DNA of 64,000 nt from Candidatus Peregrinibacteria bacterium (GCA_016196225.1 JACPXZ010000031.1:359-64358), one strand, 5' to 3'. Shown: positions 5,015-62,237, numbered from the stretch's first letter. Translations and numbers: made by a program. The notes: generated by a model from the letters alone, not told the origin.

Positions 5015-6554
5015 TTCGCTCAATATACGCAGAGGACATCGATGCCACAGACTCATCGAAGGTCATATCTGAACTCTCTTTTTTATACTCACGGTCAAAA
5101 ACTCCGGGGACCGACACTTCTTGCAATGCCCGCAAAAACAACGCGCTCTCGCGTATGGTTGGTTTTGCACCGTTTTCAAAAATCGCACGCAGGGCTTTTC
5201 GACAACTCTCGACAGAATCGACTTGAAAAACGCCTGATGCATACTGGGTGAACGTGTGACCGAAGAGGAGCACCGGCTTCTCCTTAAATAAAGCCTCCAT
5301 CCCGACCGTTCCTGTCCCCGTTGCAACGGCCATGCAATGCGTTAATAAGTCAAAGGAGTTGTATCCACGTGATACAAACCGTACGCGATTCAGATCAAGG
5401 AGATCCTTGTAAAAAAATAGTTCTCTCCCGCGCCCATCCGGGTACTGTCGCGATTGATTGGGATGCTCTTTGATATAGAGGAGAACTTCGTCCGGGAGCA
5501 GGCCACTGAGCATTTTAGCAATGAGGATTTGGTCGGTGAAAGCTCCTGCCATTGGTGTTGTCGAGCACTCCGGCTGCATCTGAAGAGGAAAGTAGACAAA
5601 CGGTTTTGTGAGATCCGGTTCGACCGCATGTTGATCATAAAAACGAACCATTCGTCTCACGAGCAATACCCGCCTCATACGATCAAGGGATGCTATCCAG
5701 TGTTTTGGATGGCATAATCGCACATAAAATCGCCAGACATGGTTCATAAAATTCCCCACGCCTCGCTTGTACACCGACGCAATACGCTGGACTTTTTTTG
5801 TCAGAGGACCAGAAAACGAATTCTCCATATCCCACGGTACTGGCGCTGTTCTTGAGGATGCAACTTGTGCTTCAAGAAACCGCGTGTACTTGTCATTCAA
5901 TACAATCATCTTGTGCGGATCGGCATACTCCTCTCGAAGACGCTTAAGGACATCAGGAATTTGCGCAGCCGACTCCTCCCAGTCCTCCAATACACAGTGT
6001 TCTTCTTTGACCGCCCCTGCATGCACAAAGATTGTAGGGACACCTTTGAATTTACAAAGGGAGTAGATGATATAATCATGAGATTCATGGGGAATCCCAC
6101 TCGAGAGATAGAGATTGATCTTCCATGTATCCAAAATATGGTTCCAGTACTGAAGACTCTTTAGATACGCACGTTTGCGTACTTGGTAAGAAAGCGTTTG
6201 CCGTTCTTCCAAACGCGTCAACATATCCATGTACACCGACTCACAATGTCGCATGTTCTCGACCAGATCTGCACCAATGGGGGTAATCTCATCCCAGTCA
6301 GTGTCATATTCCCCCCACTTGACGAGCGTGGAAGGAATCCAGAGCTGTCGATCAGCTCCAACGAATGGCACATGACACTTGATCTGACAAACAGATATGC
6401 AACTCTCAACCGAGAAACGCTTGAGTATAGTCCGCAGGATCTGGTCACTCATCGGCGCTCCGAGATGGGTGACAATGACACGAATGCTCTCTTGTGAAGA
6501 AGGGCGGGGAGCCAACATTGACTTCGCCACCACGGCCTGATTGCTCATGGACAC
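4980..6554 (-). CDS. capsule polysaccharide biosynthesis protein family (KpsS/LipB-like)
   Basis: 524-aa ORF. FVYFPLQMQPECSTTP and the C-terminal VATGTGTVGMEALFKEKPVLLFG are typical of the capsule_synth-type family. Family assignment is tentative. Confidence 0.55.
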   Translation of the reverse strand: MSMSNQAVVAKSMLAPRPSSQESIRVIVTHLGAPMSDQILRTILKRFSVESCISVCQIKCHVPFVGADRQLWIPSTLVKWGEYDTDWDEITPIGADLVENMRHCESVYMDMLTRLEERQTLSYQVRKRAYLKSLQYWNHILDTWKINLYLSSGIPHESHDYIIYSLCKFKGVPTIFVHAGAVKEEHCVLEDWEESAAQIPDVLKRLREEYADPHKMIVLNDKYTRFLEAQVASSRTAPVPWDMENSFSGPLTKKVQRIASVYKRGVGNFMNHVWRFYVRLCHPKHWIASLDRMRRVLLVRRMVRFYDQHAVEPDLTKPFVYFPLQMQPECSTTPMAGAFTDQILIAKMLSGLLPDEVLLYIKEHPNQSRQYPDGRGRELFFYKDLLDLNRVRFVSRGYNSFDLLTHCMAVATGTGTVGMEALFKEKPVLLFGHTFTQYASGVFQVDSVESCRKALRAIFENGAKPTIRESALFLRALQEVSVPGVFDREYKKESSDMTFDESVASMSSAYIERIRKYFPESAHS

Positions 6555-13574: not shown

Positions 13575-14353
13575 CCCGCCGTATTGCCTCCCCGATTTCG
13601 ACGTTCTTTGCAGACTTTCACGCGGCAGAGGGAATCATGCGGGCGAGTGACTGCCTCGAATGCCGCGACCATTTCGCTCAGCAGCAATACCCGCACGAAG
13701 AGCTGTTCCATTTTGAAGCGGAGCTCATTAAGTCCTGGTCCGATTCCGAGCGCTCTTTTATTCAAAAGAACATCGCAGCAAAACCAGACCTGCGCATTCT
13801 CTCGTTTCATGCCGGATCATCCTTTACCAAACCAAAAATCGTCAATCAGCACTTTGAACCGGGCGGCGAACGCGTCGCCGCCAGCGATCTGCAAAAGAAT
13901 GCCCGGGAAAACGTGATGTGGCTGCGTTCCGTATTGGACAAAGAGCAAACGATTGCCCTCGAGAATAACAACTACTATGCGACACCTGCGTACGATGACG
14001 TGACCGACGGATCGTTTTTAACGGCCGTCCTGGAAGAAAACAACATCGCACTCCTGTTCGACATCGCCCATGCGCACATTACCGCTTGTAACAGAGGACT
14101 CTCGTTTGAGGAATACACCGCAAACCTTCCACTGCAAAGAGCGGTGCAAATTCACATTTCGCGATGCATCATCAACCCAGACGGTTCTGCTTCGGATGCG
14201 CATCTTCCCCCGGACGGGGAAGTATTCGCCGAGGTGAAAACATTTACTCTCCGTTTCCCGCAGATTCGCTACTTTACGATTGAGTATTATCAGGACGCAG
14301 GTATCCTTCTCCAATCCCTGGTTCGTCTCCGCGCTCTTCTTTCCACCTTGTAG
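13571..14353 (+). CDS. xylose-isomerase-like TIM-barrel protein (DUF692-like pattern)
   Basis: ATGA overlap with the DegT gene. The pattern IALENNNYY...LLFDIAHAHITACNRGLSFEEY...VQIHIS resembles the DUF692/AP-endonuclease-2 clan. Confidence 0.5.
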   Translation: MTRRIASPISTFFADFHAAEGIMRASDCLECRDHFAQQQYPHEELFHFEAELIKSWSDSERSFIQKNIAAKPDLRILSFHAGSSFTKPKIVNQHFEPGGERVAASDLQKNARENVMWLRSVLDKEQTIALENNNYYATPAYDDVTDGSFLTAVLEENNIALLFDIAHAHITACNRGLSFEEYTANLPLQRAVQIHISRCIINPDGSASDAHLPPDGEVFAEVKTFTLRFPQIRYFTIEYYQDAGILLQSLVRLRALLSTL

Positions 14354-28802: not shown

Positions 28803-28816
28803 ACGGAACTATTTTA

Positions 28817-28851
28817 CCCCCTCTCCCTAGCCCTCCCCCCATGGGGGAGGG
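28817..28851. repeat. GC-rich hairpin repeat in a divergent intergenic region
   Basis: CCCTCCCCC cat GGGGGAGGG (28831-28851), preceded by cccctctccctag. Confidence 0.7.
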
Positions 28852-28868
28852 AATGCTAGAATTCAGGC

Positions 28869-33880: not shown

Positions 33881-34153
33881 GCCACTTTTGTCCGGCAACA
33901 AAAGTGGCGCAAAAATGCCGGCGCGCCAGAGCTGACTCCGCCCGCCCTGCGGTCTCCTCACCAGACCCTCCAAGGATTCGGGTCTGGTTCGTCGACACGA
34001 AAAGCAGGGCTTCCCCTTCACCCCCTGTGGCGCGCCAACCCCCCCTCCATCTTTCCTCGCTCCCCTGATTGTGAGCTGTTTCAGCCTCTCCCAATAACCC
34101 CTCTCCCGGCGGGAGAGGGTTGGGTGAGGGGGTCAGATTGATATAAAATCTGA
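33881..34153. repeat. cluster of hairpins and nested inverted repeats in a 323-nt intergenic gap
   Basis: Hairpins: GCCACTTTTG/CAAAAGTGGC (33881-33908), CCCTCTCCC ggc GGGAGAGGG (34098-34118) and GTCAGATT/AATCTGAC (34131-34153). Nested pairs: GGCGCGCC (33920, 34029), GCCCTGC/GCAGGGC (33944, 34004) and ACCAGACCC/GGGTCTGGT (33960, 33980). Confidence 0.75.
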
Positions 34154-34159
34154 CAGAAC

Positions 34160-35188
34160 ATGCGAAATCTCTCTATCAATCTTTTACTGCTTATAACGAC
34201 AGTTATCCTCTTTTTTGGAGGGATCGAAGTCGCTTTGCGCGTGACTGGTCTCCAAACCACAAAACCAAACCCCCCGAAGATTTTTCAAAAAAGTCCGCAC
34301 CCAGACATCAGTTACGAACTGATCCCCAATATCAAAGAAAAGGCGTATCGCTCCATTATTTCCACGAATAGCTTAGGATTTCGCGGACCGGAGATCGATC
34401 CCCAAAAACCACTGATCGCGGTATTGGGGGATTCGATCACCTTTGGATATGGACTTGAAGACCACGAAACCATTCCTGCGCGCCTTCAAAACCTTCTCCC
34501 TGAATGGAGTATTCTGAATACCGCTGCGCCCGGATACGACCTCACGGTACAAACAGCAATCTATAGGGAAAAACTCAAATCCCTTGAGCCACACATACTC
34601 ATCCTTATTTTTCATCCAAACGACGTAGAAGGCATCGGTGTCGGGTTCCTCGATAATGATGGAATCATTCGTTCGCAAGGCTGGACTCCATCAGCCCCCC
34701 AATGTGACCCCATCGATCATGGATTACTCGGATACCTCCCCGGTCGATGTTTTCTGGATATTCACAGCACCTTCTACAAGGTAGTCAAAAAAGTCGTGAA
34801 TTCACGCTTTCGGCAGAAACAACTTATCCAGATGCAGGAAGAGTCTAAACAACATCCCGAAGAAGATGACATTACCGATGTCCAAATCAAGAGCTATGCC
34901 GACGACCTTGCACGGTTGCATCAAATCCTCCCGCAATCCCTCCCCCGCCTCTTTATCATCTGGCCCGATCGACGTCTCCATGCGATTGCCCGTCCCAAAA
35001 TCATCCAGATCGTAAAAAAATATGGATTTGAAGTCCTCGATCTCTATGACGTGTTCGGCAATGCCGCCCCTACCCTCTCGTGGGATACTGTCCACCCCAA
35101 CGCAGAGACTGCTAAAAGAGGGGCGGAGGAGATATGGAGATTTATTCAAGAACATAAACTACTACCCCTCCCGACGGGAGGGGACTAA
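34160..35188 (+). CDS. SGNH/GDSL-like hydrolase with N-terminal membrane anchor
   Basis: N-terminal TM helix, block I IAVLGDSITFGYG and block V WDTVHPNAETAKRGA. The last codons and the stop lie in repeat DNA. Confidence 0.75.
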   Translation: MRNLSINLLLLITTVILFFGGIEVALRVTGLQTTKPNPPKIFQKSPHPDISYELIPNIKEKAYRSIISTNSLGFRGPEIDPQKPLIAVLGDSITFGYGLEDHETIPARLQNLLPEWSILNTAAPGYDLTVQTAIYREKLKSLEPHILILIFHPNDVEGIGVGFLDNDGIIRSQGWTPSAPQCDPIDHGLLGYLPGRCFLDIHSTFYKVVKKVVNSRFRQKQLIQMQEESKQHPEEDDITDVQIKSYADDLARLHQILPQSLPRLFIIWPDRRLHAIARPKIIQIVKKYGFEVLDLYDVFGNAAPTLSWDTVHPNAETAKRGAEEIWRFIQEHKLLPLPTGGD

Positions 35189-35345
35189 GGGGAGAGGCAC
35201 CCCTCCCTGGAGGGAGGGGAAGGGCACATCGGTCGCGACCGATGTGCCAGGGGAGGGGGTAAGATGCATTCGTTTGTATTGCAGGCCAAACGGACCCCCC
35301 CCCTCCTTCATCCTCCCCCTCAAGGGGGAGGTGCCCCCGCCGGGA
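35165..35345. repeat. array of GC-rich hairpins plus a 26-nt perfect palindrome between convergent genes
   Basis: Hairpins: CCCCTCCC gac GGGAGGGG (35165-35183), CCCCTCCC tgga GGGAGGGG (35200-35219) and CCTCCCCC tcaa GGGGGAGG (35312-35331). GGCACATCGGTCGCGACCGATGTGCC (35223-35248) is a perfect palindrome. A C9 run lies at 35295-35303. Confidence 0.85.
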
Positions 35346-36513
35346 GAGGGAAATGAGACAAAATTCTTTTCATCCTCTCCTTCCAATCAAATCGCTTCAC
35401 GTGCTCTTTTCCTCTTTGCGCTTTCCTCTGTGCTTCTTCAGGGTGATTGAGAACCCATTCGATGGCATCCGCCATCGATCGTGGATCTCCTGCTTTACAA
35501 AAGGTCACCATGCTTTCATCGACGGTATCACGAATGGGAGGAATGTCCGAACAGACAACCGGTTTCCCTGCCGCTAAATATTCAAACAACTTCAAAGGTG
35601 ATGTATCCCGCATAAAATATGCATGTTTTTCCGCATCTCTAGGCGCCGGATAGACACAAACATCGCATGCGGCAATGGTATGAGAAACACGACTACTGAG
35701 GATCTGCCCCTCAAAACGAACATCATCTTGTGTTAATCCCAATTTTTGTGCTTGTCGTTTGTATTCACCAATATACGCATCGGGGCCTCCAACAATCCAC
35801 CCAAAAAATTTTGCTTCTCCGCGCTTAATAATCGCTAATGCTTGTACCAATTCCCGCATACCTTTTTCAATAATACTACGTGTCACAAGCGACCCCACAT
35901 ACCCAATAACCCATCGATTCGATGGAACATCGAACTCTGATTTGGAGACCTCTGTTTCGGGCAAACTTGCAAATCGATCCAGATCCACCCCATCGGGTTC
36001 TACCATTGTTTTTTTTGCATCAACTCCCCACCGAACTATTGCATCCCGCATCATGCTCGTTAAACAAATAATCTTTGTACATTGATTGCAATACTTTACA
36101 AACGTCTTGCGATTCATCCGTGGCAACGTATGCAGTTCCATATGTACTGATGTACCGGTACGTAGTAACTCTCCTACGACTTCCCATGAGCGACAATAGA
36201 AGAGATCTGCTTCATGCGTTTTTAAGAATGTTCGAAGAACCCTCCGGTACGACCACATCGAAATTGCAAATGCAAAATACCCGGGGATCCACCATTTTTG
36301 GAGCGCATCAAGACTGTTCAATCGTTTCACAGTGAAAGGAGCGGATACACCGTAATATCTACAGGGATCACCTTGTACTTGTGTCCAGACATTTGGATGA
36401 ACCAGAGTCACTTCGTGTCCCAACTGCCGCATTGCCGCACATACTTGTGCAATTTGATGCCCATGGGCTTTTTCGGTCGGGAACCGGGTATGCGTAACGT
36501 AGGTAATGCGCAT
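35320..36513 (-). CDS. GT4 family glycosyltransferase
   Basis: MRITYVTHTRFPTEKAHG start, and the C-terminal SPLKLFEYLAAGKPVV region. The stop codon lies in a hairpin loop. Confidence 0.9.
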   Translation of the reverse strand: MRITYVTHTRFPTEKAHGHQIAQVCAAMRQLGHEVTLVHPNVWTQVQGDPCRYYGVSAPFTVKRLNSLDALQKWWIPGYFAFAISMWSYRRVLRTFLKTHEADLFYCRSWEVVGELLRTGTSVHMELHTLPRMNRKTFVKYCNQCTKIICLTSMMRDAIVRWGVDAKKTMVEPDGVDLDRFASLPETEVSKSEFDVPSNRWVIGYVGSLVTRSIIEKGMRELVQALAIIKRGEAKFFGWIVGGPDAYIGEYKRQAQKLGLTQDDVRFEGQILSSRVSHTIAACDVCVYPAPRDAEKHAYFMRDTSPLKLFEYLAAGKPVVCSDIPPIRDTVDESMVTFCKAGDPRSMADAIEWVLNHPEEAQRKAQRGKEHVKRFDWKERMKRILSHFPLPAGAPPP

Positions 36514-43159: not shown

Positions 43160-44830
43160 TTAGAGCAAAACCTTCCACAAACTCCAACCTGCGTTCTCTG
43201 AGCGGAGCTTGTCCTGAGCGCTGTCGAAGGAGCCGGCAGGCCATCCCTCCTCCGTTTTAACCTTTTCGATGCGAACCTTCTTAAGTTTGGTTAGATTCCA
43301 CGCAGGATTGATCTTCTCATTCCAAAACAAATAATCCACTCCGTACTTCTTCAAAAAACCGTTCGGATCCTTATCCATGCGATTACATGCGTCTTTTACC
43401 ATCTGTACTTCCCTATCCCGTACATCTTGCGATCTTTGTCGCTGCTCAAAATAGAGTAAATGCGTGCTATCCTCAATGTACCGTTCGTTGGGAAGGATCG
43501 GCAAGAGCGTAAGACAATACCGCTCGGCAAATTCTTCGTCATTGATGAGAACATTTTTAAGATAAATGGAATACACCGTGTCATGATGCGTGTGCCCCGC
43601 AATGAAAAGTGACGTTGGTTGATCAGAAAGGATCCGCACTCGTGGCATTGCATCTAGAACCGGAAGGGCAGATGCAAGATGTTGCTCATAAAAATGATCG
43701 TCCTCCAGAATAAATTGTTTGATGATATGCCGACCGTCGTACGCGATCCCGGCCAAAAATACCAATGCGCATGCCCCGCTGAGGAGCGTCCACCGGTTGC
43801 GCACGGTAAGAGCAAGAACCAAACAGACGACCCCGCCAAAAATCAGTGAAATAAGGTAGTGTGAACTAAAAAACAAGATCACCCCGTGGATCACTTGTTG
43901 GTTAAGAACGATAAACGCCGCAAGGACGGTGATGATCGCAAGCCGATAGCGGTATAAGCGTTTCGGATACAGTACCCACGCCCCGAGGACTCCGCCCGCC
44001 ATTCCCAAAAAGAGCGTGCTCCGTATCCACGATTGAGGAGCGCGCGAAAAGAGAATGCCGCTCCGATACTGCGCCTCCGCGTAAAGCGGATGTCCGCTCA
44101 TAGCAACGAGCTCTGTAACAAACGGGAGCGCGATCAATCCGCCAATGAGTCCCATCAAAAGAATACTCCCGACCTCTTTGCGGTACCCATGGCGTATGGA
44201 TGTCATGAGTTCATAGAGCAGGAGCAAGCCCCACCATGCCCACACAAACGTCCAGCTCCAAAAATATACCCCGACGAGCAACCCCATGAGTACACCGCCG
44301 ATCAATCCCCACGTCACATGCCCCTGAACCCCTCGTATCACTCCCAAGAGTGCCGCAAGCTCAAGAAGAAAACTCGTTCGTTGATGAACCGGACGATTCA
44401 GATTGTATAGATTGAGTACCGTAAAAAGGATGGCCCCACCAAAAGCCTGCGACTGTGTAAAGCCACAGAGGAGTAAAAACCACCATATACCAACAAAGAT
44501 AATCGGCGGGATAACGGCGTCCATGAGTTGAAAAACGGTGGATGCGCGCCATCCGGTCCAACTAAAAAATATCCCCTCGATTTTTTCAATCAGCGCAGAT
44601 TGCATCGGGACCAGAGACGGATCTCCCACGACCGCCTCGGGAGCCATTTCCGGTCGACCGGAGAGCGCCTCCTGAACACGCGGAAGATAATTATATTCAT
44701 CAGAGCTTAAGTGCACGGGGATCCCCCGATAGCGGGTATCTGCCATGTGCATCCACTCCGGGAGTTGTATGAGAAGAATTAAACTCACACAACTAACGCC
44801 GATGATGGAGGACCAGCGAGTGGTAGCCAT
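43160..44830 (-). CDS. polytopic membrane protein, GT-C-like
   Basis: N-terminal anchor, loop motif SSDEYNY (DExxY-like), more than 10 hydrophobic spans and a soluble C-terminal domain. The last ~25 residues are encoded by repeat DNA. Confidence 0.6.
   Translation of the reverse strand: MATTRWSSIIGVSCVSLILLIQLPEWMHMADTRYRGIPVHLSSDEYNYLPRVQEALSGRPEMAPEAVVGDPSLVPMQSALIEKIEGIFFSWTGWRASTVFQLMDAVIPPIIFVGIWWFLLLCGFTQSQAFGGAILFTVLNLYNLNRPVHQRTSFLLELAALLGVIRGVQGHVTWGLIGGVLMGLLVGVYFWSWTFVWAWWGLLLLYELMTSIRHGYRKEVGSILLMGLIGGLIALPFVTELVAMSGHPLYAEAQYRSGILFSRAPQSWIRSTLFLGMAGGVLGAWVLYPKRLYRYRLAIITVLAAFIVLNQQVIHGVILFFSSHYLISLIFGGVVCLVLALTVRNRWTLLSGACALVFLAGIAYDGRHIIKQFILEDDHFYEQHLASALPVLDAMPRVRILSDQPTSLFIAGHTHHDTVYSIYLKNVLINDEEFAERYCLTLLPILPNERYIEDSTHLLYFEQRQRSQDVRDREVQMVKDACNRMDKDPNGFLKKYGVDYLFWNEKINPAWNLTKLKKVRIEKVKTEEGWPAGSFDSAQDKLRSENAGWSLWKVLL
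43191..43240. repeat. repeat DNA forming the C-terminal tail of the membrane protein
   Basis: gcgttctctgagcggagcttgtcctgagcgctgtcgaaggagccggc is read on the minus strand as GSFDSAQDKLRSENA. It is the same gtcctgagcg...cgaagga type as 49247-49280. Confidence 0.6.
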
Positions 44831-48719: not shown

Positions 48720-49849
48720 AGAAGGTTTTTAAATAATGCCAAATGCTCCTCACACACTTCCCTCCATGTTCGCGTAGAAATATTTTTTATCGCGTCCTCT
48801 GCAAACTCCTCATACCCCTGTTCTACTTCGAAGAGTGCCTTCTGAATATCTTCTTTCGTTCGCAGTTTCCGCACAATCATCCCCTTTTTTAGATCCATAC
48901 TTAACCCCGTCTCTTCCGTCAGGAGTACCGGCAATCCGGCAGCTTGAGCCTCAAGCGCAGTATTGGGACTGATCTCCGTTGTCGATGGAATAATCAATAC
49001 ATCATGTTCTTTGAGTAATTTGTCCTTTTCTGCTCCATACACGGATCCCAATACTCTCACCCGGTCACTCGTCCCATCACGAATAACTTTTGACAGAACA
49101 TTCTTTTTTAATGGACCCTCTCCAACCAATGTCAGCATCATATGTGGCATTTGCAGGATCGCATCAAGAAGAGTGAACAGATTTTTAAAACCTACAAATC
49201 GTCCCATGAAGAGTAAACGGAATAGGCCCGGCTTCCTCGAAAATCGGAGCCTGTCCTGAGCGAAGCCGAAGGACCGTGGCAATCCCGTTGGGATTGCATT
49301 CTCAATAACACCGTGCTGTGGTAATGATTGATAAAACTCTTCATATATCTCTTCCTGAAATCTTGTCGAGAAGACAATCAAATCAAACCGATTGAGGAGC
49401 CAGTGTATAAAGCGGTGACTGATCCAGAGCGTCCAATGCAACGATTCATACCACTCATTCAAACTCATCATCCCTCCTCCTGCCGTATACCGCTCCCAAA
49501 AAAAGTCTCCGCCAAGACGCAGTACCTTTTTTGGTTTTTTTACGTGAGCAAGAACCATCGGCACCCCTGTACTTACCGACGAAAATGCATACACCACATC
49601 CGCATCCTTCGCGTGCTTCCGTAATGCCAATGCATACAAAAACCATCGGAGAATGGGAATACTCTTACTCACCCTCACAACATGCCATGCACATTCTTCA
49701 TTCTTCATTCGCTGTTCTACGTTCCGTCCGTACGTCACCACTATCACCTCTATGTTTTTCTTTACAAATTCCCATGCAAGATTCTGCACATACGTCGCCG
49801 GTCCCCCGATATCCGGCGGATAGATGCCTGTTGCAAGGACAATTTTCAT
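48716..49849 (-). CDS. GT4 family glycosyltransferase
   Basis: MKIVLATGIYPPDIGGPATY, LLFMGRFVGFKN, EISPNTALEAQAAGLPVL. Confidence 0.85.
   Translation of the reverse strand: MKIVLATGIYPPDIGGPATYVQNLAWEFVKKNIEVIVVTYGRNVEQRMKNEECAWHVVRVSKSIPILRWFLYALALRKHAKDADVVYAFSSVSTGVPMVLAHVKKPKKVLRLGGDFFWERYTAGGGMMSLNEWYESLHWTLWISHRFIHWLLNRFDLIVFSTRFQEEIYEEFYQSLPQHGVIENAIPTGLPRSFGFAQDRLRFSRKPGLFRLLFMGRFVGFKNLFTLLDAILQMPHMMLTLVGEGPLKKNVLSKVIRDGTSDRVRVLGSVYGAEKDKLLKEHDVLIIPSTTEISPNTALEAQAAGLPVLLTEETGLSMDLKKGMIVRKLRTKEDIQKALFEVEQGYEEFAEDAIKNISTRTWREVCEEHLALFKNLL
49247..49280. repeat. hairpin repeat in frame within the GT4 gene
   Basis: ggagcctGTCCTgagcgaagccgaAGGACcgtgg is read on the minus strand as SFGFAQDRLRFS. 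Confidence 0.65.
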
Positions 49850-53616: not shown

Positions 53617-54414
53617 ATGAAAGGCGTCCTCATCTGCGGCGGGTCCGGAACCCGGCTAAAGCCCCTGACCGATATCACGAACAAAAGCCTCCTCCCGGTC
53701 TACGATAAGCCCCTCCTCCTTTATCCTCTCCAAACCCTTCTCGATGCGGGCATCCGCAAGATCATGGTGGTGTCAGGTCCCGAGCACGTTGATCAGATGG
53801 CAGGATTCCTCGGGAGCGGTACGCGGTTTGGGTGTGCATTTTCTTACCGCGTACAAGATGATCCTAAAGGTATCGCCCAAGCGCTCGGTATGGCCGAAGA
53901 GTTTGCGGATGGTGACAATGTCTGTGCACTCCTCGGAGATAATATTTACCTTGATCCGATGAGGCAGGCCATCGCTTCTTTTGAGAGCGGCGGTCATGTC
54001 TTCCTAAAAGAAGTATCGGATCCCGAACGCTTCGGCGTGGCGCAAGTACAGGGAACACGCATTACTTCTATCGCAGAAAAGCCTGCTCATCCCACAAGCA
54101 ATCTTGCGATCACCGGTTGCTACATATACGACCATCGTTGTTTTGAGGTTATTCGCCATATGCAACCTTCACCCCGTGGAGAACTCGAGATTACCGATGT
54201 CAGTCGCTGGTATATGGAACAGAAAGAACTCTCCTACACCATCCTCAAGGATGAGTGGATCGATGCGGGGACATTCGAGAGTCTCCACCAAGCTGCTGTC
54301 ATTATTCGTTCTCGTAAACTTGCGCATACCGTTCAGCAATTTCTCCCCAATCAAACCGTTCCGCAAAAAGCCTCCCCGCCTGTGCAAGTTGCTCCCGCTC
54401 TTCATGGTCGGTAA
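53617..54414 (+). CDS. rfbA: glucose-1-phosphate thymidylyltransferase-like sugar nucleotidyltransferase (short form)
   Basis: MKGVLICGGSGTRLKPLT, LGDNIY, and EITDV near the C-terminus. ATG 53617 is preferred to 53596. The C-terminal tail overlaps the convergent GT4. Confidence 0.85.
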   Translation: MKGVLICGGSGTRLKPLTDITNKSLLPVYDKPLLLYPLQTLLDAGIRKIMVVSGPEHVDQMAGFLGSGTRFGCAFSYRVQDDPKGIAQALGMAEEFADGDNVCALLGDNIYLDPMRQAIASFESGGHVFLKEVSDPERFGVAQVQGTRITSIAEKPAHPTSNLAITGCYIYDHRCFEVIRHMQPSPRGELEITDVSRWYMEQKELSYTILKDEWIDAGTFESLHQAAVIIRSRKLAHTVQQFLPNQTVPQKASPPVQVAPALHGR

Positions 54415-55357
54415 GAAGTATCTCTATCGCTGCTGAAGCCACATCGGGGTCGTCCGGCGGGACGAGAATTCCCGTCTTTTCATCCTGCACAATATCGGGG
54501 ATCCCCCCGACCCGCGTCGCAACAACCCCGCACTCCGCAGCCATCGCTTCCAAAAATACATTCCCCAACGCCTCACTTCGGGAGAGTCCGCAGAAGATTT
54601 GAGCCGCAGCAAATTCCTTATAGACATCGGGTACTGAGACCCACCCGACAAATCGCACGCGGCCCTCTTTAATAAATCGCTCTGCGCGTGCTTCGAGCGG
54701 TGCACGAAGCGAGCCATCCCCTACAATCCGTAAATGCGCCCGTGGATGCCGCTGTATGACGATCTCAAATGCATTCAGCAAAGTATCGACCCCCTTCATC
54801 TCTTCGAGTCGGCCGACAAAAAGAATACGACCTTCCACCTTTTGCGTCTGCAAGACGGTTGACCGAATGGTTTTGAGAGAGATTCCATTCGGGATCAGAT
54901 GCACATCCTCTCGTCCATATTCTTTTGCAATATTAACCAATGCAGAACTGATCGCGGTCACGGTATCGGGCGACCGAACGATCATCTGTTTCAAAAAACT
55001 TCGATTGGTTGTCTGCAACGTCAGGATTCTCTGAGAGCCCGAACTGGTCCATTTACAAAAATAAAGTGCAAGTCCAGCAAATGTTTCGAGAACGGCGTGC
55101 ACGATATCCGGCTTGAGTTTCCACACCACGAATGGTGCAAGGAACGGATAGAGCCATTTATCGAATGAAAACCCTAAACCAATACGAATAACGCAAACTT
55201 TCCCCCCTCCCTGCCCTCCCCCCCCTCTCCTCATCCTTGCCGTCACAATCGTAATGTCATAGCGACCCTCCAGCCGTATCGCCACTTCCTCCGCACATGC
55301 CTCCGCCCCACTCCGAAATGGGGAAAGGAATGCCGAGAGAATCACTACTTTTTTCAT
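54302..55357 (-). CDS. GT4 family glycosyltransferase
   Basis: FVGRLEEMKG and SRSEALGNVFLEAMAAECGVVAT. Confidence 0.85.
   Translation of the reverse strand: MKKVVILSAFLSPFRSGAEACAEEVAIRLEGRYDITIVTARMRRGGGGQGGGKVCVIRIGLGFSFDKWLYPFLAPFVVWKLKPDIVHAVLETFAGLALYFCKWTSSGSQRILTLQTTNRSFLKQMIVRSPDTVTAISSALVNIAKEYGREDVHLIPNGISLKTIRSTVLQTQKVEGRILFVGRLEEMKGVDTLLNAFEIVIQRHPRAHLRIVGDGSLRAPLEARAERFIKEGRVRFVGWVSVPDVYKEFAAAQIFCGLSRSEALGNVFLEAMAAECGVVATRVGGIPDIVQDEKTGILVPPDDPDVASAAIEILLTDHEEREQLAQAGRLFAERFDWGEIAERYAQVYENE
55200..55233. repeat. C/G-rich repeat in frame within the GT4 gene (contains a G8 run on the coding strand)
   Basis: ttcccccctccctgccctcccccccctctcc is read on the minus strand as RRGGGGQGGGK. 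The C8 run is at 55218-55225. Confidence 0.7.
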
Positions 55358-60438: not shown

Positions 60439-61704
60439 ATGACACTCGATATTTCGGCAATTCGCAGGCAATTCCCCATCCTTGATCAGGAACTCATATA
60501 CCTGGACAGCGCCGCCACCGCGCAGAAGCCGCAGATCGTCATAGACGCCCTCAAAGAATTTTACGCAAAAAAAAACGCGAACGTCCACCGGGGGATGCAT
60601 GGTCTTGCCGAGCAGGCGACCACTGCATACGAAAACGCACGAACATCGGTGCAAAAATTTATCAACGCGGCCTCCCCGGAGGAAATCATCTTCACCAAAA
60701 GCTGCACCGAAAGTATCAACCTCGTTGCCAACTCTTACTCCTCCCGACGGGAGGGGGTTAGGGGGAGGGGGTCTGTGGTTCTTTCGCTTCTTGAACATCA
60801 TTCCAATATCGTTCCATGGATGATGTGCGGGGCACATCTCCATTGGATTAATATCGATGAGTATGGAAATACACGATTGGAACAACTCGATACATATTTA
60901 AAACAAGAAAACATAGAGCTCGTCGCCATCACCGGCCAAAGTAATGTTCTCGGGACCCGCCCACCACTTAAAGAGATCATCCAAAAAGCTCATGCCGCCG
61001 GAGCATATGTCCTCGTCGACGCAGCCCAACTTGTCGCGCATCACCAAGTAAACGTGCAAGAACTTGATTGCGACTTCCTCGCATTCTCCGCTCACAAACT
61101 CTACGGACCGACCGGAATCGGCGTCCTCTACGGCAAACGAGAGCTTCTCGAAAAAATGCCGCCGTTCATCGGCGGCGGCATGATGATCAAAGAAGCCACA
61201 CAAACCGGATTCACTCCCGCCGATATTCCCCAAAAGTTTGAAGGCGGCACTCCCCCCATTGCACAGGCCATCGGTCTCGCCGCCGCTCTCGAGTGGTTGG
61301 AGCAATTCGCATGGAAAGATATCGAAGAGCATGAACACGCTCTCCTTAAACACGCTGAACATATTCTCAAAAATATCGATGGCCTGAAAATTCTCCCAGC
61401 ATGTCATCCTGAGCCCGACGAAGGACGACATGCTCAAGATGTCATGGTTCGTCGAGCTCACCATGACATGGAGCGTTCCGGCTGCCTCTCTTTCGTTCTC
61501 GATAAAGTCCACCCCCATGACCTCACGGATATCCTCGGAGAGCAAGGCATTTGCCTCCGAGCCGGCCACCATTGTGCCATGCCCCTCCATAAACGTCTTA
61601 ACATCCCCGCAAGCACCCGTGTATCTTTTGGAATTTATAACACCATCCAAGAGATTGATATTCTCGCCGACGCGATTCAACATGCTCAAAAAATACTGCA
61701 ATAA
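60439..61704 (+). CDS. sufS: cysteine desulfurase, SufS type
   Basis: IRRQFPIL, YLDSAATAQKP, NVHRG, SAHKLYGPTG (PLP Lys), RAGHHCAMPL (catalytic Cys). Confidence 0.9.
   Translation: MTLDISAIRRQFPILDQELIYLDSAATAQKPQIVIDALKEFYAKKNANVHRGMHGLAEQATTAYENARTSVQKFINAASPEEIIFTKSCTESINLVANSYSSRREGVRGRGSVVLSLLEHHSNIVPWMMCGAHLHWINIDEYGNTRLEQLDTYLKQENIELVAITGQSNVLGTRPPLKEIIQKAHAAGAYVLVDAAQLVAHHQVNVQELDCDFLAFSAHKLYGPTGIGVLYGKRELLEKMPPFIGGGMMIKEATQTGFTPADIPQKFEGGTPPIAQAIGLAAALEWLEQFAWKDIEEHEHALLKHAEHILKNIDGLKILPACHPEPDEGRHAQDVMVRRAHHDMERSGCLSFVLDKVHPHDLTDILGEQGICLRAGHHCAMPLHKRLNIPASTRVSFGIYNTIQEIDILADAIQHAQKILQ
60739..60772. repeat. GC-rich hairpin repeat in frame within sufS
   Basis: tCCTCCCgacGGGAGGgggttagggggagggggt shares about 17 nt with the intergenic hairpin at 35165-35183. 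Read as SSRREGVRGRGS. Confidence 0.75.
61400..61469. repeat. two tandem hairpin repeats in frame within sufS
   Basis: CATGTCATCCT/AGGACGACATG (61400-61432) and ATGTCATGGT/ACCATGACAT (61439-61469). Read as CHPEPDEGRHAQDVMVRRAHHDM. Confidence 0.8.
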
Positions 61705-61707
61705 CAT

Positions 61708-62184
61708 ATGGATCTGTACGCCGAAAACATCCTCGATCACTATCGCCATCCACGACATAAACTCCCTCTCCCCAAAGAGGCACCTCCCCCGACGGGGGAG
61801 CCCGCCTGCCGGACGGGCAGGGACCAAGGAGGGGGAGTAGTCATTCATCATGAATCCAATCCCGCCTGCGGAGACGAACTTACCATCCGCTTCGGTATCA
61901 AAGATGATCATATTCACAATCCCTCATGGGATGGCACCGGCTGCGCCATCAGTCAGGCTGCGATGTCCATGCTCGCAGAAGAATTTGAGAATATCTCAAT
62001 CGACTCTGCCGCTGCTCTCACACCTAAGCAAATCTTTGATCTCCTCGGCGTTCCCATCAGCCCCCGCCGCCTCAAATGCGCCCTCCTTGGGCTCCATGCT
62101 CTTAAAAATGCCCTGCATATTCATTACGGAGAACCGTTGCAAGTATGGACTCAAACAGTATCTGGAGCCGTCGACGAGATTTGA
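61708..62184 (+). CDS. sufU: SufU/IscU-like Fe-S cluster scaffold/sulfur acceptor
   Basis: ILDHYRHPRHK, NPACGDEL, GTGCAIS, RLKCALLG (three conserved Cys). Confidence 0.8.
   Translation: MDLYAENILDHYRHPRHKLPLPKEAPPPTGEPACRTGRDQGGGVVIHHESNPACGDELTIRFGIKDDHIHNPSWDGTGCAISQAAMSMLAEEFENISIDSAAALTPKQIFDLLGVPISPRRLKCALLGLHALKNALHIHYGEPLQVWTQTVSGAVDEI
61762..61838. repeat. GC-rich hairpin repeats in frame within sufU
   Basis: CTCCCCC gac GGGGGAG (61784-61800) and CCTGCC ggacg GGCAGG (61805-61821). Read as LPLPKEAPPPTGEPACRTGRDQGGG. Confidence 0.75.
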
Positions 62185-62237
62185 ACTCGTGACCCCCTCC
62201 TTACCATGGAGGTGCTCTACCACTGAGCTACGACGGC
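62163..62237 (-). tRNA. tRNA-Thr (anticodon GGU), CCA encoded
   Basis: Hand-folded cloverleaf. Acceptor GCCGTCG/CGACGGC, D arm GCTC-AGTGGTA-GAGC, anticodon arm CCTCC-ATGGTAA-GGAGG and T arm ACGAG-TTCAAAT-CTCGT, then T-CCA. Length 75 nt. Confidence 0.9.

Follow-up and report, generated by a model that had tools for sequence, protein, structure and literature searches.

A probable BoxC/PIT/TM repeat translated within a SufU-like gene of a Peregrinibacteria genome

The SufU-like gene and its insert

We analysed 64,000 nucleotides of one strand (the window; GC content about 48%) from a Candidatus Peregrinibacteria bacterium, a genome of the Peribacteria/Peregrinibacteria within the Candidate Phyla Radiation (CPR). 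In this window a gene for a SufU-like Fe-S scaffold protein carries an in-frame segment built of small G/C-rich hairpins, which is probably a copy of the dispersed repeat known as the BoxC, potential intrastrand triplex (PIT) or TM element. The segment had been described as a repeat-derived insertion in an earlier reading made from the DNA alone (the sequence-only reading). The genes at the locus and the parts of the insert are as follows.

60439-61704, plus strand: sufS, group II cysteine desulfurase, directly 5' of sufU (TIGR01979, 495 bits against a 475-bit cut-off; Pfam Aminotran_5)
61708-62184, plus strand: SufU-like Fe-S scaffold/sulfur-transfer gene of the NifU_N family, 158 amino acids (Pfam NifU_N, E = 2.4e-20)
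61762-61837, plus strand: composite four-arm repeat element encoding LPLPKEAPPPTGEPACRTGRDQGGG (from the fold and from alignment to the reverse strand of 35286-35356)
61774-61836, plus strand: 63 nt, or 21 codons, encoding KEAPPPTGEPACRTGRDQGGG between the kept LPLP and VVIH codons (from the length census, the alignment of filled and empty sites, and AlphaFold2)
61764-61773, plus strand: upstream C-arm CCCTCTCCCC, lying in the LPLP codons and forming the 5' side of the outer stem (inverted repeat)
between the C-arms at 61764-61773 and 61783-61790, plus strand: spacer AAAGAGGCA (element layout)
61783-61800, plus strand: inner hairpin 1, with C-arm CCTCCCCC (61783-61790), loop GAC and G-arm1 GGGGGAG (61794-61800), a perfect stem of 7-8 bp
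61801-61827, plus strand: second loop, extended to 27 nt, corresponding to the single 21-nt gap against the copy at 35.3 kb
61805-61821, plus strand: hairpin 2, nested in the second loop, CCTGCC GGACG GGCAGG (inverted repeat)
61828-61837, plus strand: G-arm2 GGAGGGGGAG, the third arm, 3' half of the outer stem (inverted repeat, fold and alignment)
SufU-like product: predicted tryptic peptide, EAPPPTGEPACR

The best NCBIfam match of the 158-residue protein is SufU (TIGR01994), ahead of IscU and NifU, at 72.1 bits against a cut-off of 92.5 bits. The top Foldseek matches are ISCU, IscU and SufU, which confirms the fold. In an alignment of 38 sequences Cys54, Cys79 and Asp56 are invariant and Cys124 is conserved in at least 90%, so the three cluster-binding cysteines are retained, as the sequence-only reading had said. 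The second and third cysteines are 45 residues apart, and Lys rather than His precedes the third. We take this spacing to be IscU-like, without the longer segment of Bacillus SufU, and the lysine is presumably a SufU-like trait. The last 22 nt of the SufU open reading frame (ORF; 62163-62184) lie within a tRNA-Thr(GGT) gene of the other strand (62163-62237), and orthologues stop a few residues before the end of the protein encoded here.

The protein reads ...HYRHPRHK LPLPKEAPPPTGEPACRTGRDQGGGVVIH HESNPACGD, a motif-to-motif segment of 46 residues. To place this length, we fetched 80 GTDB Peribacteria loci encoding a SufU orthologue and measured the segment from HYR.PR to N..CGD in 73 GTDB Peribacteria species plus the window. 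The segment has 26-27 residues in 58 of the 74 sequences and 29-47 in a minority; the window protein exceeds the modal loop by 19 residues, and solved SufU and IscU structures lack the extra segment. The claim of an insertion of about 20 residues therefore holds, and the orthologue alignment points to a lineage-variable insertion rather than an ancestral conserved loop. The insert is not an artefact of assembly, since an independent Logan assembly (SRR12113417, contig L204; contigs and loci are numbered with L throughout) is 100% identical to the window over 60746-62210. That contig begins within the repeat unit in sufS described below and ends within the tRNA gene, typical assembler behaviour at repeats.

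Two hairpins had been noted in the insert, CTCCCCC gac GGGGGAG at 61784-61800 and CCTGCC ggacg GGCAGG at 61805-61821, and both are present at these positions. They are enclosed by an outer 11-nt inverted repeat that had gone unremarked, ACTCCCTCTCC at 61761-61771 with GGAGGGGGAGT at 61828-61838. The predicted RNA fold of 61755-61845 has this outer stem around the two hairpins, with an energy of -46.6 kcal/mol against -35.3 +/- 3.2 for shuffled sequences (z = -3.5; none of 200 shuffles as stable), as calculated with ViennaRNA, which considers Watson-Crick pairs only. The element thus has three consecutive arms in the order C-G-G, plus an upstream C-arm, CCCTCTCCCC, that matches exactly the canonical C-arm of the Escherichia coli TMECO elements. 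We also considered hairpins 1 and 2 as a 21-nt tandem duplication and rejected this, their identity being only 11/21 when compared by hand.

In the AlphaFold2 model, residues 18-41 have a predicted local distance difference test score (pLDDT) below 50 and lie between a helix (3-13) and a strand (44-51), and the core is confident (means of 83-93 for blocks of 10 residues over residues 41-150, about 90). Strand 1 has Cys54 after its C-terminal end and the insert loop before its N-terminal end. Because the two lie at opposite ends of strand 1, the insert would be at the pole opposite the cluster site, and would therefore be tolerated. On this model, the element encodes a predicted Pro/Gly-rich disordered loop that joins helix 1 to strand 1 and would lie at the far end of this strand from the cluster-binding cysteines, and the model and the conservation pattern together suggest that it has no function in the protein. 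Purifying selection would remove only those copies that bring a stop codon or a frameshift. The selection for frame-preserving insertions proposed in the sequence-only reading then amounts to the trivial filter acting on any surviving copy in an essential gene.

The repeat family inside and outside the window

Perfect hairpins whose 5' arm is C-rich lie in the window at 14204, 28831, 34099, 35165, 35200, 35312, 60740 and 61784. Their flanks reveal a unit of about 35-40 nt, consisting of a C-arm, a short loop, a G-arm, TT, TTA or CTA, and a second G-arm, and the three-arm units are mutually alignable. A covariance model, R1, was built from eight such units. About six loci of the ~35-nt unit are found in the 64-kb window, with R1 E-values of 1e-5 to 1e-11, and five units score 37-51 bits (E = 1e-7 to 1e-11). 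A blastn-short search of the insert against the window returned only 9-12-mers, and the family was seen only after a scan for hairpins with C-rich arms combined with alignment of their flanks. The copies besides that in sufU are listed here.

60732-60775, plus strand: canonical three-arm unit in sufS, encoding SYSSRREGVRGRGS (R1 48.6 bits, E = 7.5e-11)
within 60732-60775, plus strand: sequence of the sufS unit, CTCCTCCC GAC GGGAGGGGG TTA GGGGGAGGGGG, also a canonical G-quadruplex (G4) motif
35293-35350, minus strand: nearest sister of the sufU element (R1 37 bits, E = 8e-8)
35159-35262, plus strand: two more units in a convergent intergenic cluster (R1 46.1 bits)
34080-34137, plus strand: intergenic four-arm unit with core 34099-34133 (R1 43.4 and 28.1 bits)
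28813-28856, minus strand: intergenic unit between divergent genes (R1 51.3 bits, E = 1.5e-11)

The sufU copy is a four-arm composite and a sister of the copy on the minus strand at 35293-35350, which has the layout CCCTCTCCC GGCGGGGGCA CCTCCCCC TTGA GGGGGAGG ATGAA GGAGGGGGGGGG. Aligned with the reverse strand of 35286-35356, the sufU sequence at 61758-61845 is identical in 51 of 65 columns (78%) with one 21-nt gap, a score reached by none of 1000 shuffles. Hairpin 1 has exactly the arms of the copy at 35312-35331, and the sufU arms also match identically those of 35293-35336, which scores 37 bits with R1. The flank GGCA-CCTCCCCC, which lies outside the palindrome, is common to the sufU and sister copies. 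Read in the same frame, the sister copy gives the C-terminus ...FPLPAGAPPP* of the gene at 35320-36513 (minus strand), to be compared with LPLPKEAPPPTGE in SufU. The similarity that the sequence-only reading had noticed between agaggcacctccccc at 61776-61790 and agaggcacccctccc at 35193-35207 is real and belongs to the copy at 35189-35262, which agrees with the sufU element at 53 of 69 aligned columns; nucleotide similarity to other copies extends to the 65-column alignment just described. The second unit of the intergenic cluster (35200-35259) has a hairpin in loop 2, GGCACATCGGTC GC GACCGATGTGCC. The two genes converging on this cluster have C-terminal tails encoded by repeat arms, ...EHKLLPLPTGGD (35150-35188, plus strand) and ...HFPLPAGAPPP (35320-35350, minus strand), and both the final ~10 residues and the stop codons thus come from the repeats.

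The adjacent sufS gene had also been said to carry the family, and it does. Its unit adds a net two residues relative to 72 orthologues, the ancestral sequence having been replaced almost one-for-one, and is built around the ancestral R-E-G codons (CGG GAG GGG), which form the G-arm.

The units run from a pyrimidine C-arm (CCCTCTCCC) through a short loop to a purine G-arm complementary to it (GGGAGAGGG), and from there through another short loop to a second purine arm (GGGTGAGGG). The core at 34099-34133 is identical at 31 of 35 positions to the E. coli element TMECO-17, and the sufS unit at 29 of 35. With the 43-nt unit as query, blastn gives hits of 80-95% identity in 3,964 of 5,426 E. coli genomes, at places without an annotated feature. 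Holder et al. (2015; PMC4666352) described the BoxC/PIT/TM element in E. coli and more than 260 other prokaryotes; E. coli K-12 has 23 copies, all intergenic. Their search (ITxF) allowed loops of 1-6 nt, and, for the TM element, they reported stable triplex formation in vitro and an association with small local indels (PMC4666352). Kaplan et al. (2016; PMC5100583) studied the identical sequence as HPG1/HPG2, a switch between G-quadruplex, hairpin and duplex.

A metagenome scan for CCCTCTCCC-N(1-9)-GGGAGAGGG matched at least 120 contigs. Among the matches listed, contigs with the unit span 40-75% GC, and the third arm, which is GGGGTGAGGG or an upstream complement of it, is at most 6 nt away in 90 of 148 copies and 12-54 nt away in 28, most of these longer loops folding as hairpins. 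The same hairpin-in-loop-2 layout occurs in the sufU elements of L015 and L025 and in the window at 35200-35259. By these sequence matches the family is cross-phylum and not private to the source genome. Half of the metagenomic copies (50%) lie in open frames, against 78% of random positions, high-GC contigs being rich in spurious open frames, and coding location was then judged by Pfam checks of seven long ORFs. Two units lie inside the catalytic domain of a valyl-tRNA synthetase (ValRS; L144:3819-6854, minus strand), one in an interdomain linker of a nonribosomal peptide synthetase-polyketide synthase (NRPS-PKS; L160:8046-14570, plus strand) and one inside the GCV_T domain of a DAO-family oxidase (L157:439-2685, minus strand). 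Since these genes come from other phyla, coding copies are not peculiar to the CPR.

The copies studied here resemble the known family in the three-arm layout (C-arm, loop, G-arm, TTA or similar, G-arm), in arm sequence, most clearly in the units at 34099-34133 and in sufS, in type-A loops (TT/TTA), in paired or "palindromic" four-arm arrangements, in having no associated mobility gene and in showing small local indels. They differ in being translated inside sufS and sufU, whereas the E. coli copies are all intergenic, and in belonging to a CPR host (Peribacteria), a group unmentioned in PMC4666352 and PMC5100583. The sufU copy differs further in its variant arms and its hairpin-bearing second loop. 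We regard it as likely, with a fair margin for error, that the sufU insert is a translated, in-frame and derived copy of the G/C-rich dispersed BoxC/PIT/TM repeat, carried as a neutral disordered loop. Several observations weigh against this. Only the inner hairpin of the sufU element scores with R1 (14.5 bits, E = 0.06), and the arms CCTCCCCC, GGGGGAG and GGAGGGGGAG are variants rather than canonical arms. Loop 1 has 3 nt and loop 2, with its hairpin, has 27 nt, well beyond the short loops (1-6 nt) of the described element. The copies lie in the sufS and sufU ORFs with conserved sequence on both sides, and not between genes as in E. coli. On the other side, the sister relationship, the shared flank and the covariance-model matches at about six loci agree with the earlier proposal that the insert derives from a dispersed repeat family.

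The BoxC/PIT/TM repeats are among the most widely conserved small bacterial repeats, and the family itself is already known; coding, translated copies are a context undescribed in PMC4666352 and PMC5100583. The present copies would extend the family to the CPR/Patescibacteria and suggest that proteins can absorb such repeats as Pro/Gly-rich loops, a kind of loop-length variation that should not be read as functional innovation.

Rickettsia palindromic elements (RPE), reportedly described by Ogata et al. in 2000 (Science) and by Claverie and Ogata in 2003 (TIBS), offer an analogy. They too are said to be palindromic repeats lying in frame in housekeeping genes and translated there, in surface loops away from catalytic residues, and to occur between genes as well. 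RPE are also named in the reviews PMC3184786 and PMC10969869. They are, however, about 100-150 bp long, AT-richer and reportedly confined to Rickettsia, whereas the sufU/sufS unit has about 35 nt (76 nt in the composite), is G/C-rich with homopurine/homopyrimidine arms, and occurs across phyla. RPE are set apart here by description, no sequence similarity being expected.

Filled and empty sites and the arrival of copies

A scan of genome contigs found no close relative, the best SufU match there being 56% identical. Among related loci (836 kb searched with R1), units occur at the sufU site in L040, L002, L082, L083, L081, L015, L025 and L003, at the orthologous sufS site in L082 (51.4 bits) and in three other places. 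The closest relatives by SufU identity, P0002/L081 (73%; a protein of 142 residues with a plain unit), P0004/L082 (64%) and P0003/L083 (64%), all have a unit at the same codons; so do L002 and L040. Two of the three closest carry plain three-arm units that add six residues, and the unit of L081 reads CCCTCTCCCA GA GGAGTGCGG TT GGGGTGAGGGG. Because they are common to relatives at 64-73% SufU identity, the basic insertions in sufS and sufU are old. These data do not support the active spread suggested in the sequence-only reading: L081, L082 and L083 share the copy in sufS and, in a shorter form (+6 residues), that in sufU, and the part specific to the window comes to only about 39 nt, namely the inner pair of arms, its GGCA flank and the extra hairpin. 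From these comparisons, a plain unit may have been present at the sufU site in a genus-level ancestor, with the inner arm pair, the GGCA flank and the 21-nt hairpin added later.

Filled and empty sufU sites are interleaved across the Peribacteria. The filled L015, L025, L003 and L016, all of one clade, were monophyletic in 0 of 300 neighbour-joining bootstraps of SufS, and the empty L046 was sister to the filled L015 in 64%. This arrangement suggests recurrent gain or loss; against that stands the nature of the tree, a single-gene neighbour-joining tree with modest support, which makes the number of events uncertain. Alignment of filled with empty sites shows that both the V.H codons and those for LPSP/LPLP (the C-arm) are kept, about 21 codons apart; no target-site duplication is seen in this comparison of sufU sites or at the copy in the window. 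The insertions are thus not clean ones: the sufU copies keep the flanking codons without such a duplication, and the sufS copy replaces sequence. Orthologous filled and empty sites of this kind give base-level views of a locus before and after the arrival of a copy, which are rarely possible with intergenic copies.

In another Peribacteria clade (L004-L008) the sufU loop (about locus positions 6046-6100) is filled by three to four tandem heptamers, most with a short palindrome: GAATTCC (L007), TGCAATN (L008), GCTGATA/GCTGTCA (L005) and GGCCAAG (L004). Those of L005 form a 20-bp stem that takes in conserved R-N-K codons.

The hairpins could instead have been made in place, without a donor copy: intrastrand template switching, or fold-back copying, would turn the Pro/Leu codons of the site (CTCCCTCTCCCC) into inverted duplicates, with later slippage doubling the G-arm. 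Hairpins can arise by template switching during replication, as reportedly described by Ripley in 1982 and by Monttinen and Loytynoja in 2022 (PNAS). The C-arm of filled sites consists of LPSP/LPLP codons that also exist in relatives with empty sites (L014, L045), the G-arms of L002 form a near-perfect 13-nt tandem repeat, hairpin 2 (61805-61821) has no other copy in the window, and the right arm of the L005 stem must be a local inverted copy, because the stem includes the conserved R-N-K codons. A local inverted duplication accounts for the nested hairpin 2 and for the L005 stem, and both are probably of purely local template-switch origin. What it leaves unexplained are the non-palindromic spacers and flanks (GGCA, AAGGAGGGGG) that the sufU element shares, within an alignment of 78% identity, with 35293-35350, and the cross-phylum third arm. 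L040 and L081 have the canonical third arm GGGGTGAGGGG, with T and not A, the form that also occurs in E. coli and across metagenomes from many phyla, and a local duplication of GGGAGAGGG would not predict it. We consider an in-place origin of the whole element improbable, although it is the strongest of the alternatives.

A classical non-autonomous transposon appears less probable still. Such an element could be a transposable element of the miniature inverted-repeat type (MITE), or a repetitive extragenic palindrome (REP or REPIN) moved by a REP-associated tyrosine transposase (RAYT) or an IS200/IS605-type transposase. Bacterial MITEs include the Coxiella QMITEs (PMC5896051). The family is indeed dispersed and multicopy with inverted-repeat ends, CTAC/GTAG tetranucleotides adjoin some copies (35158-35164, 61837-61841), and the Logan contig breaks inside the sufS copy, as happens at repeats; REP/REPIN elements and MITEs are likewise short, GC-rich, hairpin-forming dispersed repeats that sometimes lie over ORF ends. 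Here, however, the comparison of filled with empty sites gives no target-site duplication despite the 11-nt inverted repeat, and copies replace their target rather than add to it (+2 residues in sufS). No transposase or integrase lies near any E. coli copy (PMC4666352), and no transposase-like ORF (RAYT or IS gene) or integrase was seen among the 57 window ORFs, inspected by eye only, with no Pfam or other profile scan (e.g. for PF01797). REPs are, moreover, species-specific, whereas the arm sequence here is conserved across phyla.

We think it slightly less probable again that the suf genes retain the structure for its action as a nucleic-acid switch (hairpin, G-quadruplex or triplex), which might tune translation, the stability of the mRNA, or replication through sufSU. 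One codon-level site is occupied in species of several clades, the sufS copy is a canonical G4 motif following a complementary C-arm, and a G4-hairpin-duplex switch has been proposed for this sequence (PMC5100583), yet the arms are decayed in L081 (G-arm1), L049 and L018, no constraint is seen on the loops and the element is missing from sister species. With a loop of 27 nt, the sufU copy does not qualify as a canonical G4, and earlier work in E. coli cited in PMC4666352 detected neither promoter nor terminator activity.

Protein-level selection for an ancestral loop of this SufU lineage, for SufS docking or partner binding for example, with incidental hairpins, would fit the extension of all same-clade relatives at this place (L002, L049, L081-L083) and a peptide that is Pro-, Gly- and charge-rich like many linkers, but it is very unlikely and is largely refuted by the orthologue alignment, with the 26-27-residue form in 58 of 74 sequences and a segment unconserved even at 64-78% overall identity. 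The pLDDT below 50 and the presence of this DNA between genes, in the window and in E. coli, also speak against it.

If the sufU insert is a BoxC/PIT/TM copy, the means of its arrival has to be sought in a family for which we know of no mobility mechanism since the 1990s. We tentatively favour short-patch templated copying (copy-choice, gene conversion or homology-facilitated repair) over transposition, a preference held with low confidence. Copying would be seeded where the target already resembles one arm: at sufU the C-arm-like LPSP/LPLP codons (CTC CCC TCT CCC), and at sufS the G-arm-like R-E-G codons (CGG GAG GGG). Such patch copying fits better than cut-and-paste movement because target-site duplications are lacking, target sequence is replaced and the arms coincide with pre-existing arm-like codons. 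It is a somewhat more speculative idea that BoxC/TM elements in general spread by short-patch templated copying seeded at arm-like microhomologies, and are therefore able to colonise tolerant loops of essential genes. Three points count against copying. In a half-site test, 15.5% of empty sufU sites lie within two mismatches of the C-arm against 7.8% of control windows, only about a twofold difference; no donor and recipient are close enough for copying to be proved; and no enzyme is known for the family (PMC4666352). If the idea is correct, the Peribacteria sufU loop between helix 1 and strand 1, with its alternation of filled, empty, plain and nested versions at a single codon-level site, would offer a natural series for reading the insertion mechanism.

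Other repeats and the remainder of the window

SufS has a second, unrelated insertion at 61403-61471, which adds 19 residues (326-344, PDEGRHAQDVMVRRAHHDM) and is encoded by a palindrome with a stem of about 23 bp (CATGTCATCCTGAGCCCGACGAA / TTCGTCGAGCTCACCATGACATG). SufS orthologues have insertions of other lengths at this loop, and a 28-nt piece is 93% identical to L043:7656-7683. A third repeat family, TCCTTCG..GCTCAGGACA(A/G)GCTCCG, is present at 43169-43255 and 49211-49297 (both minus strand), where two genes contain it, translated as F.SAQDKLR / FGFAQDRLR. The L082 sufS insert, L071, L078 and L059 have copies as well, and the motif appears in the SufU loop of P0006 (FDFAQDRVR).

The window contains four potential quadruplex sequences against about one expected, a weak enrichment; the sufS unit is included and the sufU copy is not. 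A tract of G-runs at 55202-55230, in the gene at 54302-55357 (minus strand), is a G4 motif on the coding strand without a complementary arm and encodes RRGGGGQGGGK near the N-terminus of a product that is glycosyltransferase-like by eye. A DNA-uptake sequence was also considered for the repeat. Known uptake sequences occur about once per kb, and with about one locus per 10 kb seen in the window this identification was rejected. Rfam models at the gathering threshold find nothing in the window beyond two tRNAs.

Positions 1-60000, viewed by eye, look for the most part like a large glycan or cell-envelope biosynthesis cluster, and family calls for this cluster come only from the syntenic contig L082. 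The genes recognised by eye include glycosyltransferases, aminotransferases, HisH/HisF-like and amidotransferase genes, an ABC exporter, an MBOAT protein and large membrane proteins.

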